From Actinomycetota bacterium (GTDB lineage Bacteria; Actinomycetota; Aquicultoria; CAJVYJ01; JAUVQD01): a DNA stretch of 46,221 bases. A program made the translations under genes and the position numbers. Shown piece by piece: positions 7,357 to 26,361 of this stretch. The notes beneath the pieces are model-generated. The model ran no database searches. It saw nothing but the letters and a program-made list of their open reading frames with translations, and was not told where the DNA came from. Each line of letters opens with the position of its first letter. The first letter of the stretch is position 1. The DNA lies in NCBI GenBank assembly GCA_030679975.1, contig JAUXSL010000102.1, positions 1-46,221 of the forward strand, given 5' to 3'.

Positions 7357-7399
7357 TGTTGTTAGGGAATTTACCGCCGGTTGGGATTGGGAATATCTA

Positions 7400-7605
7400 G
7401 GAGTCTGTCTAAGTACTCCCGACGATAGCGAAAATCCGGAGGGCGAGTCGTCCGGCAAGGCGCGATAGGCCTCGGGGTCCCCGCGAGGCGGACTTTGTCT
7501 CGTGGGGCAAGGCGACGCGTAGCGGTAGCTACTCGGAGGAGTCGCAACGCAGCCGGCGGCCGGCATCCGGATTTGCAGCCGGAGTGGAGTATTTAGACAG
7601 ACTCC
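7400..7605. mobile_element. MITE-like palindromic element, family A copy 1 (206 bp), intergenic between divergent genes
   Basis: 20-bp terminal inverted repeats GGAGTCTGTCTAAGTACTCC / GGAGTATTTAGACAGACTCC (1 mismatch), flanked by TA at 7398-7399 and 7606-7607; homologous inverted copy at 25136-25298; no transposase. Confidence 0.9.
7474..7507 (+). repeat. 34-bp REP-like hairpin module nested in MITE A1
   Basis: GGGGTCCCCGCGAGGCGGACTTTGTCTCGTGGGG; lies in a ~43-bp segment absent from copy A2; homolog at 19798-19831. Confidence 0.85.
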
Positions 7606-7634
7606 TAGCCAAAGCCGAATTAATGCGAGGTGCC

Positions 7635-19676: not shown

Positions 19677-19866
19677 AGAACGCGGCCCAAAGCCCCAGAT
19701 GCAAGCTTGCCCCGTACGTCGATACGGGGGCAGACGAACACCGAGGCGAGGGAGCGTATGTGCGATTACGTGACCGAGCCGAGGTGGAGGATAACCCGGG
19801 GTCCCCGCAAAGCGGACTTGGCTTTGTGGGGTGGAGCGTCGCAGATGGGGTTTTCAGCCGCGTTCT
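19677..19866. mobile_element. MITE-like palindromic element, family B (190 bp), carrying two nested hairpin modules
   Basis: Terminal inverted repeats AGAACGCGGC / GCCGCGTTCT with imperfect extension (AAAGCCCC..TGC / GCA..GGGGTTTT); nested CCCCGTA-cgtcga-TACGGGG at 19710-19729 and the 34-bp GGGGTCCCC module at 19798-19831. Confidence 0.8.
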
Positions 19867-24117: not shown

Positions 24118-24901
24118 ATTTAGCCAGATCGCGCTCGGGGAGCATGGCTTTTATTTCAGCTTCATTTTCCGGCATGTTAAGAACCCGTTCGCAAATCATC
24201 TTAGGGTAGACGGCCATTTGCGTGGCCTGAATAAGGTAGGCTTTTTCGAGTCGCTCAAAAACCAGGCGAGCAGCTTGAACGGGCGTTTCCGGAAGAACCA
24301 GGCAAAAGCAGTTGTCGCTTAGGTAGCCCACTTCGTCAATTAATCTTACATGGCTTCGCATGATGTTGGCTACTTTTCCGATCAGCTTTTCACGAGCAGC
24401 CGTCTCCGAGGGTTGCGTCCAATCAAGGGTTACGAACAGGATTGAAAAGGGTCGGGCGTGACGATGATACTCACTAAATAAACGCGCTATCGACTTTTGC
24501 AGATAGGCTTGACTGTAAAGATGCGTCTGATCTTCGAGGTGCTCCCCGCCGGCCAGCCCGGCAATGAGATATTTGCTTCGAGTCGCCAACTCGCTTCCGA
24601 ATATGCCGATCAAACCAAAAAGGACGGCCCTGGCCATAACGGACCGACCGTCCTGAGTCAATAGATTCAAGTTGTTAATTTCCTCCACCCTGGCGATCAA
24701 ATATATCATCGCTCCACTGGTGGCGGCCATGAATCCCAGTTGTCTGCCATAGTGCAGGGCGATAAAGAGAATCGGTACGAAGAGTGCTTGGCCTAGAATT
24801 TCCGACGATGGCGCTCTTTGAGTGAATGAAATTATAATTGACAATAAGACGGCAGAAAAAGTCAGAGCTAAAAACAGAATTTCCAGTCTGCGATATTTCA
24901 C
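24107..24901 (-). CDS. Membrane protein with a degenerate GGDEF-like domain
   Basis: N-terminal TM helices; DQTHLY, RPFSILF, VRLID.VGYL-SDNCF-CLVLPET (SDNCF at the GGDEF position); GTG 24901 after AAGGA. Confidence 0.7.
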   Translation of the reverse strand: MKYRRLEILFLALTFSAVLLSIIISFTQRAPSSEILGQALFVPILFIALHYGRQLGFMAATSGAMIYLIARVEEINNLNLLTQDGRSVMARAVLFGLIGIFGSELATRSKYLIAGLAGGEHLEDQTHLYSQAYLQKSIARLFSEYHRHARPFSILFVTLDWTQPSETAAREKLIGKVANIMRSHVRLIDEVGYLSDNCFCLVLPETPVQAARLVFERLEKAYLIQATQMAVYPKMICERVLNMPENEAEIKAMLPERDLAKFIA

Positions 24902-25038
24902 AAAGATCCTTTCCGCGGGAGAGTAAAAAGTCAATATATTAATCGGCATTTTCGCGCCCGGCTTGAGAAATAATGAGAAGTCCGGGCCGAATGCGGTAAG
25001 ATGTTCGGAGATACTTGAGCCGGGCCGCGAAGAGTTTT

Positions 25039-26361
25039 ATGGCAAAAAAACTGGGATTCATAATCGTTTTTCTTTTGTGCGGCGCCATCCAAATCGGCGT
25101 TGGCACGGCCGTCGCCGAAATCGTCCCGGCCCATAGGAGCCTGTCTAAGTACTCCACTCCGGCTGCAAATCCGGTATGGCGGCCGCCGGCTGTGTTGCGA
25201 CTCCTCCGAGTAGCTACAGCTACGCGTCGTCCTCGCGCCTTGCCGGACGACTCGCCCTCCGAATTTTCGCTTTCGTCGGGAGTAATTAGACAGGCTCCTA
25301 GCATCTCATCACCTTCCGCGTTTCTTCTGGATGTACGGACCGGTCGTGAGCTCTTCTCCAAGGAAGCTTATAGCCAAAGACCGATCGCAAGCACGACCAA
25401 AATACTGACGGCTCTGGTGGTGATGGAAAAATCCAGCCCAAACGATGAAGTAGTTATCAGCGCCAACGCCGCATCCACTGGAGGCGCGACTATTGGTCTT
25501 AAGCAGGGAGAGCGGCGAAAGGTAGGGGAATTGCTGGAGGCGCTGATGCTGGCCTCGGCAAATGATGCGGCCGTTGCTCTTGCCGAACACGTTGGCGGAA
25601 GTGTTGCGGGGTTTGCGCGGATTATGAATGAAACAGCCCAGTCGTTGGGCGCCAAAAACAGCCGGTTCATGAGCCCCAACGGTTTGGCCCCCGGCAACCT
25701 GCATTATTCAACAGCCGAGGACTTGGCCCGCATAGCCCAAGCGGCTATGAAAAAAGATGAATTCAGGATGCTTGTTTCGACGCGCAGATACACCTGGGAA
25801 ACGACGGAGTCGAGCAGACCGACGTTATTGACTAACAGCAATAATTTACTGGAAAAATATCCGCCCGCGACTGGGATAAAGACAGGCTATACAAATGAGT
25901 CAGGTTACTGCCTGGTGGCCAGCGCCACCAAGGGGGAGCGGTCGGCGATAGCGGTTATTCTGGGCAGTCCGTCAAGAGACGCCTCGTTTAACGATGCCCG
26001 CCAATTGCTCGATTGGGCTCTCGATCGTTTTGAATTTATGCAGGTAGTCAAAAAGAGCAGACGGTATGGCGTTCTAATAAAAGCCGGTCTTTCGGTGCCC
26101 CTGGTCGCTGATAAGACGTGGGAGGAGCTCGTCTACAACGGTGCCGACGGAGGGCCGGTTTTGAAAGCGTTGATTAAAAAGGGGGTAAAGCTGCCCATAA
26201 CTAAGGGGCAGAGAGTGGGGGAATTGGCAATAATGCGCCTGGGCAAAAAGGTCGGCTCCGTTGGGTTGTTAGCGGGCAGATCGGCAGCCGATCCTTACGT
26301 GGCAGGCAGTATTCAAGATTACTTCCGACGGGTTGTCAAAAAGATAGAAAATCTGCTTTAA
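25039..26361 (+). CDS. dacA: D-alanyl-D-alanine carboxypeptidase (peptidase S11) carrying a 55-codon in-frame element insertion
   Basis: Signal peptide; ASTTK (SxxK), SAN (SxN), KTGYT motifs; PBP5-like C-terminal domain. Confidence 0.88.
   Translation: MAKKLGFIIVFLLCGAIQIGVGTAVAEIVPAHRSLSKYSTPAANPVWRPPAVLRLLRVATATRRPRALPDDSPSEFSLSSGVIRQAPSISSPSAFLLDVRTGRELFSKEAYSQRPIASTTKILTALVVMEKSSPNDEVVISANAASTGGATIGLKQGERRKVGELLEALMLASANDAAVALAEHVGGSVAGFARIMNETAQSLGAKNSRFMSPNGLAPGNLHYSTAEDLARIAQAAMKKDEFRMLVSTRRYTWETTESSRPTLLTNSNNLLEKYPPATGIKTGYTNESGYCLVASATKGERSAIAVILGSPSRDASFNDARQLLDWALDRFEFMQVVKKSRRYGVLIKAGLSVPLVADKTWEELVYNGADGGPVLKALIKKGVKLPITKGQRVGELAIMRLGKKVGSVGLLAGRSAADPYVAGSIQDYFRRVVKKIENLL
25136..25298. 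mobile_element. MITE-like palindromic element, family A copy 2 (163 bp, inverted relative to copy 1), inserted in frame in dacA
   Basis: TIRs GGAGCCTGTCTAAGTACTCC / GGAGTAATTAGACAGGCTCC; TA at 25134-25135 and 25299-25300; 163+2=165 bp=55 codons, no stop. Confidence 0.9.

Follow-up and report, generated by a model that had tools for sequence, protein, structure and literature searches.

Introduction

In-frame fusions of miniature inverted-repeat transposable elements, or MITEs for short, are called "not unusual" in a 2024 review, which gives the Rickettsia palindromic elements (RPEs) as the extreme case, with nearly half of them inside open reading frames (ORFs) and a conserved peptide per family (PMC10969869). 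The enterobacterial ERIC and RU-1/2/3 sequences are described as MITE-like and mostly intergenic with occasional copies in frame within genes (PMC2759123), and for QMITE1 and QMITE2 of Coxiella in-frame cases are described that form C-terminal tails (PMC5896051). IS1182-family MITEs of 160 and 169 bp derived from the insertion sequence (IS) ISMac2 are listed for Methanosarcina acetivorans (PMC3852290). Here we describe a 163-bp element that lies in frame within a gene for an S11 D-Ala-D-Ala carboxypeptidase (dac) in a metagenome-assembled genome (MAG) of an Actinomycetota bacterium. The stretch of DNA analysed, referred to as the window, comprises the 46,221 nucleotides of positions 1 to 46,221 of contig JAUXSL010000102.1 (assembly GCA_030679975.1). 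A preliminary description of the window had proposed that the element may represent an undescribed family of protein-invading elements, its insert being either translated as a tolerated peptide or removed or bypassed at the RNA level, and had named as checks a search for further copies, a count of intragenic copies with a test for lengths divisible by three, and an alignment of dac orthologs.

The locus resembles RPEs as these are described, namely palindromic repeats of about 150 bp that lie in frame in conserved proteins and are translated as extra segments (PMC10969869). It departs from them in that one of 46 copies lies inside an ORF and 10 of 19 actinobacterial-type copies leave the dac frame open, where RPE membership would call for frequent in-frame copies and a conserved peptide. 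Most copies have stops in every frame, and the present family has clear terminal inverted repeats (TIRs), a TA duplication and an IS1182-type partner, RPEs being compared by description only. The C-terminal tails described for QMITEs (PMC5896051) are paralleled by an aroE tail supplied by a copy in a related genome (G021), while sequence, host (here groundwater Actinomycetota) and partner transposase set the present family apart from ERIC, RU and QMITE. The Methanosarcina MITEs are likewise non-autonomous, about the same size and paired with an IS1182-family partner, but they are archaeal and are listed with 4-bp or no direct repeats (PMC3852290). The exact core pattern described below gave no Methanosarcina match in the species-genome scan. 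Correia elements of Neisseria are about 100-150 bp long, with a TA duplication, long terminal repeats and a whole-element hairpin in transcripts. The present element is similar in size, TA duplication, terminal repeats and whole-element hairpin and differs in that RNase III processing, IHF sites and promoter creation are unsupported here. A promoter and terminator scan of 24900-25450 gave 0 sites. No description of this MITE family was found in Rfam or in the full-text literature searched, supplementary files and most subscription journals aside, and literature word searches with sequence strings of the element returned unrelated primers only.

Results

A stop-free element within the dac gene

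The segment 25134-25300 of the window consists of TA, 163 bp and TA, and the ORF at 25039-26361 crosses the element without any stop. The features of the gene and the element are as follows.

25039-26361, + strand: S11 D-Ala-D-Ala carboxypeptidase gene including the insert, 440 aa from ATG, with an alternative TTG start at 25015
25039-25116, + strand: predicted signal peptide MAKKLGFIIVFLLCGAIQIGVGTAVA, from the translation, with an AlphaFold helix at residues 2-27
25134-25135, no strand: TA target-site duplication, left copy (sequence, repeat finder)
25136-25298, + strand: 163-bp MITE in the 'plus-form' orientation, encoding protein residues 33-87
25136-25155, + strand: left TIR GGAGCCTGTCTAAGTACTCC, an 18/20 match to the end of an IS1182-family IS in a related genome (G006:C108)
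25157-25170, + strand: conserved core motif 1 CTCCGGCTGCAAAT, the same in the retrieved Actinomycetota, Myxococcota, Bacteroidota and Rickettsiales-labelled MAG copies
25262-25271, + strand: conserved core motif 2 AATTTTCGCT, pairing imperfectly with motif 1
25279-25298, + strand: right TIR (repeat finder)
25299-25300, no strand: TA target-site duplication, right copy (sequence, repeat finder)

The repeat finder placed inverted arms at 25134-25155 and 25279-25300 (22 nt including the TA, 95% complementary). The TIRs alone are 20 nt long, match at 19/20 positions and are kept among copies. The element is small and carries no transposase gene, Pfam matches on the host protein being confined to its S11 part. 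When folded as RNA the whole element gave -79.9 kcal/mol on the + strand (z -6.2) and -92.2 kcal/mol on the - strand (z -7.5), and 0/200 shuffles were as good on either strand. A search of 25080-25360 against Rfam on both strands at E<=10 found no family except a spurious 16-bit match to a plant microRNA. The preliminary description had reported a 163-bp element with 20-bp TIRs and a TA duplication that can fold back on itself along its whole length, and both statements hold.

The insert occupies residues 33-87 of the predicted protein (RSLSKYS...VIRQAP, 55 aa) and contains 8 Arg, 8 Ser and 8 Pro with a net charge of +6. Signal-peptide cleavage would fall after AVA by the n/h/c-region rule, which agrees with the earlier statement that 55 stop-free codons were added just after the predicted signal peptide. 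Excision in silico joins ...AEIVPAH to SISSPSAFLLD.... Pfam PF00768 matches residues 84-311 of the host protein (E 9.5e-56), and the SxxK (S118-T-T-K121), SxN (S173-x-N175) and KTG (K281-T282-G283) motifs, which had been described as intact, are invariant columns in a 19-sequence ortholog alignment. The protein thus has both the domain and the three motifs of the S11 family. The 440 codons carry no other lesion, and this was the sole S11 gene that the protein search found in the source genome (G000).

An AlphaFold model of the host protein, made with the 19-sequence alignment, had a mean predicted local distance difference test (pLDDT) score of 84. Residues 27-83 had pLDDT <50 and no secondary structure, while from residue 91 the catalytic and C-terminal domains scored 86-98 per 10-residue block apart from two lower blocks at 79-81, with a C-terminal helix at residues 419-439. 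The model places the insert outside the fold, where it would form a floppy N-terminal tail if the signal peptide is cleaved and a tether if it is not. An intein reading was considered and dropped: residues 33-87 gave no Pfam match to an intein or Hint domain, a length of 55 aa falls short of an intein, and AlphaFold shows the segment as disordered.

The insertion is derived

To place the insertion relative to orthologs, the protein was searched against 41 genomes (G000 and 40 relatives), and an S11 match was found in 40 of them, G000 included. In the 39 other genomes the best match began at query residues 76-89, behind the insert, with the exception of G011 where it began at residue 48. The S11 ORFs of the relatives are mostly 390-400 aa long as compared to 440 aa in G000, and all 17 aligned orthologs showed a clean 55-residue gap between the signal peptide and the conserved P-S-I-x-S/A-x-S-A motif. 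The alignment proposed earlier as a check therefore shows a segment that is not ancestral. Orthologs in other genera lack the insert, suggesting that the insertion postdates the split of the G000 lineage from the relatives searched. The QueH insertion described below is likewise absent from orthologs.

The filled site was also seen in other assemblies. Independently assembled contigs from sequencing run X1, which may be the sample behind the MAG, bridge the left junction (24881-25170) and the right junction (25254-25900), and a contig from run X2, of a different study and year, bridges the right junction with 1 difference. The two studies are dated 2022 and 2024. None of the contigs in four DNA runs spans an empty site, with the caveat that rare variants are lost from contigs.

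Further copies and an IS1182-family partner

The source genome is a 1.76-Mb MAG of 127 contigs, 95.8% complete, and the element was found at 5 places in it. Two of these lie in the window, and the others are C43:14818-14982, C112:4658-4820 and a partial copy where C10 ends. The four copies other than that in dac are 74-98% identical to it, one of them being the 43-bp fragment at the contig end. The copy search proposed in the preliminary description also gave 10 matches in G006 and 3 in G021. Among 48 species genomes of the class these were the only three with the element, each belonging to another family, and none of five genomes sharing the family of G000 had it. This patchy distribution fits a mobile element. 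Several dispersed copies per genome, as expected of a MITE, were present in G000 (5 places), in G006 (10 matches) and in a Kofleriaceae MAG (about 17 complete copies).

The second copy in the window had been reported as an intergenic sister at 7400-7605, and this was confirmed.

7398-7607, - strand: sister MITE copy, TA + 206 bp + TA, between divergent genes, non-coding

It lies in the opposite orientation to the dac copy and owes its length of 206 bp to an internal 44-bp extra segment. Homologs of the adjoining minus-strand gene begin at about residue 71 of the mechanically called ORF, behind the element, and the copy is therefore taken as non-coding. TA flanks both sides of the dac copy, the sister copy, the copy at G006:C8 and at least 6 of 11 metagenome copies, and the duplication is degraded in older copies. 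The flanks suggest a CTAG-like target in which TA is duplicated, the dac site being ATAG.

A search for the terminal repeat found it in G006 at two inverted sites 1,598 bp apart, which bound an IS at G006:C108:1929-3526 with TA on both sides. Its ends match the G006 MITE ends at 19/20 positions and the dac copy at 18/20. The single 466-aa ORF of this IS matches the NCBIfam IS1182 model NF033551 with 359.9 bits against a cut-off of 270, placing the transposase in that family by a curated model, and also matches Pfam DUF772 and DDE_Tnp_1. The IS and the MITEs of G006 have their ends in common and their interiors are unrelated. The Kofleriaceae MAG encodes a transposase with Pfam DUF772, DDE_Tnp_1 and DDE_Tnp_1_6, the same domain set as the G006 IS, and is enclosed by ends that match the local MITE ends exactly over their first 13 nt, so that in both genomes the MITE ends are shared with an autonomous IS. 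An IS1182 relative in Persicobacter also ends in GGAGCCTGTC, flanked by C-TA...TA-G. Since only the ends are common with the IS, the element is a MITE that relies on an IS1182-family transposase.

Several further observations were made around these elements. In the Kofleriaceae MAG an IS1182-like IS (L081:488-2639) has a complete mini-element on each side, abutting it through a shared TA, and in Persicobacter (locus L070) a mini-element is likewise adjoined by an IS end; the TA that ends an existing copy seems to be a preferred site for further insertions. The 9 bases TAGCATCTC to the right of the dac insertion (25299-25307) are the same as those to the right of the full-length G006 IS (L063:1521-1529), which is probably a coincidence as other copies have TAG alone in common. 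Contigs of run X4 aligned to 25128-25303 of the window reached a summed depth of 600-900 over the element and near 0 over its flanks, indicating that other organisms in that groundwater sample carry the element's relatives in abundance. A distant blastn search of a plasmid collection gave no match.

Intergenic and intragenic copies

We assembled 46 copies with flanking DNA, 11 from metagenome contigs and 35 from genomes (11 from G000, G006 and G021, 17 from the Kofleriaceae MAG, 6 from Persicobacter diffluens and 1 from a Rickettsiales-labelled MAG). A filter of >=90% coverage and >=82% identity to a lineage representative was passed by 30 of the genome copies. Another five actinobacterial copies, which are more diverged, were included manually, and three contig-end fragments were excluded from the count. 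A copy was scored as intragenic when a stop-free frame crossed it with long open flanks and when excision of the element and one TA fused the flanks to one long ORF. By these criteria the dac copy alone (1/46) reads through a real gene. Excision produced long ORF joins at L006 and L076 as well, and these were rejected as each joins two adjacent genes: the G021 join is aroE followed by a secretion ATPase, the element supplying the last few aroE codons and the stop, and the join in the Rickettsiales-labelled MAG is an acyl-CoA ligase followed by another gene. The first of these (L006:1634-2497, G021:C270) is of interest in itself as a swapped C-terminal tail of shikimate dehydrogenase, with last codons and stop from a mini-element copy. 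Three split-gene candidates (Kofleriaceae L068 and L109, and G006 L008) were left uncounted as their flanks had no Pfam match, and disrupted genes of unknown families may be undercounted. Stop codons adjoin several of the copies, which a TA or TAG target would lead one to expect, and there was no orientation bias relative to upstream genes (12 vs 9).

On the sense strand a TAA in the left TIR and a TAA and a TAG in the right TIR close frames 0 and 1, so that only frame +2 can stay open, and this is the frame used in dac. Frame +2 is open in 10/19 actinobacterial-type copies, which are mutually related, as compared to a rough chance estimate of 0.36 for about 40 interior codons without a stop in a GC-rich interior. 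The dac copy has 3/6 frames open against 0.67 expected from dinucleotide shuffles (P(>=3) 0.013, with the caveat that the palindrome couples the frames of both strands). At most one open frame, and mostly none, was present in 8/11 actinobacterial copies (G000, G006 and G021) and in 14/17 Kofleriaceae copies.

Exactly 163 bp was the length of 14/19 actinobacterial-type copies, which therefore add 165 bp. In any gene this variant would always keep the downstream frame, with about half of its orientation and phase combinations free of stops, the rest being selection on the sites at which a protein can bear 55 additional residues. In three lineages the modal length and the TA together are divisible by three (actinobacterial type 163+2, Kofleriaceae 160+2 and Rickettsiales-labelled 163+2), even where stops close every frame, and this may be a coincidence.

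The count of copies and lengths proposed in the preliminary description thus had a divided outcome, with the usual 163+2 divisible by three and a single intragenic copy among 46. Its suggestion of an undescribed family stands for Rfam and the literature searched, and its suggestion of a protein-invading family does not, with most copies carrying stops in all six frames. The family is mostly intergenic, and the in-frame dac insertion is a real but rare accident.

A second in-frame insertion in QueH

The insert peptide was searched against 5.8 billion predicted proteins, a search that detects stop-free insertions only and so gives no measure of enrichment. Among proteins of 242-770 aa the window's own protein was the sole match, and among proteins of 105-2000 aa two further matches were found, P0002 and P0003. 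P0002 is a 239-aa QueH epoxyqueuosine reductase that carries the dac-insert peptide with 86% identity in the same frame at about residues 81-135. The peptide splits the Pfam QueH profile at positions 76/77, just before the RCxxC motif, and QueH is uninterrupted in five orthologs of 173-210 aa (G000, G001, G002, G006 and G021). The insertion in P0002 is in frame, independent of that in dac, and lies in the middle part of another enzyme. P0003 has 166 aa, the peptide at its N-terminus and no Pfam domain, and may be a spurious gene call.

The two open antisense frames were also searched. Frame (-,1) had no protein at E<=0.001 among 136 candidates. Frame (-,0) had 3 matches with E 1e-4 to 1e-6 in a library of 1.84 billion representatives, and these were rejected as compositional, with 40-44% identity over 23-27 residues in many stretches.

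A core conserved across phyla

A core pattern was defined from blocks conserved among the actinobacterial copies as CTCCGGCTGCAAAT, 75-100 nt and AATTTTCGCT, giving 24 specified bases for which we estimate about 0.1 chance matches in 596 Gb. In the species-genome collection it was found at 25 places: 16 in the Kofleriaceae MAG, 5 in Persicobacter diffluens NBRC 15940, 1 in the Rickettsiales-labelled MAG, and 2 and 1 in the MAGs of G006 and G021. It was also present in 11 metagenome contigs and had 0 matches among viral contigs. The motifs served as the query and their invariance across the retrieved copies is by construction. The retrieved copies hold the motifs at equal distance from TA-flanked inverted repeats, in elements of 160-163 bp whose terminal repeats vary by lineage.

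A covariance model built from the 19 actinobacterial-type copies alone found the other lineages over its full length with 34-61 bits. The structure of the model holds in 90.5% of cells on 12 rows from other lineages, as compared to 69% with partners shuffled and 33-46% with partners slid, and 37/52 pairs show compensatory changes on these rows; the caveats are that the model guided the alignment, that the rows are related to one another, and that matched arms in a palindromic transposon may be kept by effects at the DNA level. In four lineages the minimum-energy folds have the two motifs within the same asymmetric internal loop. Folded as RNA, the strand complementary to motif 1, which is the complement of the strand translated in dac, was the more stable one in 37/39 distinct copies, by a mean of 16 kcal/mol. 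Wobble-type mismatches favoured that strand in most lineages; they were counted with a strand-neutral definition of arm pairing and are given below as the motif-1-complementary strand against the other strand.

Actinobacterial type: 103 to 65
Kofleriaceae: 81 to 8
Rickettsiales-labelled copy: 6 to 0
Metagenome lineage L132: 10 to 2
Persicobacter: 24 to 28, no bias

The asymmetry in wobble and folding hints at selection on one single strand, as RNA or as DNA. We raise the possibility, which is tentative and on present evidence unlikely, that the MITE carries a single-stranded functional module, be it a structured RNA or a DNA hairpin specific to one strand. The two motifs would sit in the internal loop of a hairpin of about 160 nt whose stems show compensatory substitutions across at least four phyla, and the terminal repeats follow the IS1182 relative of each host. 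For motif 1 a tRNA-like reading was tried and dropped, as the flanking bases form no anticodon stem.

Other repeats in the genome

A second and much more abundant repeat family is present in G000; its unit is a long hairpin of about 80-125 nt, which occurs on more than 30 contigs (C10:22758-22931, C29:5315-5474, C107:5547-5628 and about 30 other places; about 19741-19860 in the window). It had no Rfam match. The sister copy of the MITE contains a smaller module.

7473-7507, + strand: 35-nt GC-rich hairpin module nested in the sister copy, making up most of its 44-bp extra segment

This hairpin recurs in G000 at C10:22803-22837, C29:5403-5437, C122:5752-5786 and C34:65864-65898 and in the window at about 19797, with compensatory stem changes. 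It is an optional insert at varying positions in copies of both repeat families, resembling a nested mini-insertion. Rfam searches of five loci with the nested hairpin or the second repeat family returned only a spurious match to a viral hairpin.

Discussion

The element is a non-autonomous MITE, and on balance we favour the reading that its in-frame insert is probably translated and tolerated as a tail or tether on an otherwise normal enzyme. An element without a gene of its own would be moved in trans by an IS1182-family transposase that recognises the ends of about 20 nt and duplicates TA, usually within CTAG. One copy entered an ATAG site lying past the signal peptide and ahead of the catalytic domain's first strand, and the insert would most likely be translated into a disordered tail or tether of 55 residues rich in Arg, Ser and Pro. 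The gene would survive because element and duplication add 165 bp and keep the downstream frame, because the insertion phase uses the one sense frame left open by the TIR stops, and because the site is a flexible N-terminal linker. The AlphaFold model argues for the same reading as it puts the insert outside the fold. What the sequences show is the identity of the element and of its partner IS, the derived state of the insert, the open frame and the mostly intergenic family; translation of the insert, continued export and enzyme activity are inferred.

Several points weigh against this reading. No homolog of the G006 transposase was found in G000, nor in G021, and an empty site from the same species was not recovered in four runs. 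The first Arg of the insert, with its net charge of +6, lies about 7 residues past the predicted cleavage site, and work in E. coli has indicated that positive charge early in the mature region can slow Sec export. In the mRNA a hairpin of about -80 kcal/mol might draw in RNase III or hold up ribosomes. The perfect TA duplication and 19/20 TIRs would also allow a recent event, in which case an intact ORF does not by itself prove function.

Some of these points bear on the strongest alternative, that the insertion has left a young pseudogene which happens to be in frame, disabled by faulty export, by cleavage of the mRNA at the hairpin or by steric interference. The well-preserved TA duplication and TIRs would fit a recent insertion, the charge near the signal peptide and the sense-RNA hairpin of -79.9 kcal/mol would fit a loss of function, and carboxypeptidases of the PBP5 type are usually dispensable. 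However, there is no other lesion in 440 codons and the catalytic motifs are intact, this is the only S11 gene found in G000 while 40/41 of the genomes searched have one, the filled junction was seen in runs of two studies with no empty allele among the contigs, and the insert is predicted to lie outside the fold. We therefore regard a crippled gene as possible but somewhat unlikely.

A family specialised for life inside proteins in the manner of RPEs, with length and open frame selected and the peptide serving as a reusable module, would account for the modal lengths divisible by three in three lineages, for two independent same-frame insertions in conserved enzymes (dac and QueH) and for the open frames of the dac copy. 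The census makes such specialisation improbable: the dac copy is the only intragenic one among 46, most Kofleriaceae and actinobacterial copies have at most one open frame, the dac frame is open in 10/19 related copies, near the roughly 0.36 expected, the palindrome couples the frames of both strands, and the two open antisense frames gave nothing convincing in protein searches. The length divisible by three, the one open sense frame and the flexible-linker site in dac mean that no special protein-invading biology is needed.

Removal or skipping of the element at the RNA or translation level, by an intron-like, IStron-like or bypass process giving a mature protein without the 55 residues, was the other route proposed in the preliminary description, and a very stable whole-length hairpin would indeed bring the ends together. 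It is highly improbable, however, as no self-splicing intron, IStron or ribozyme family was matched in Rfam, a 163-nt unit with DNA-transposon ends and a TA duplication is not intron-like, a stop-free insert leaves nothing to bypass, and splicing would be of no use to the mostly intergenic copies. An assembly artefact, whether a misplaced repeat or a chimeric join in a MAG of 127 contigs with one copy at a contig end, is scarcely credible as the flanks rebuild a single gene exactly with its TA duplication and contigs assembled independently span both junctions (X1) or the right one (X2).

The translated and tolerated insert would be a clean, ortholog-dated case, found outside Rickettsia, in which a conserved enzyme has taken up a piece of a transposon, and the QueH case would mean that the same peptide has been accepted by two unrelated folds. 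For annotation, the case warns that a low-complexity stretch of 55 residues following a signal peptide can stem from a transposon. What most deserves further work is the conservation of the core across phyla. If the MITE does carry a functional single-stranded module, the element would be more than a decayed IS, namely a device of RNA or DNA that has travelled widely on borrowed IS1182 transposases, with insertions into proteins as by-products.

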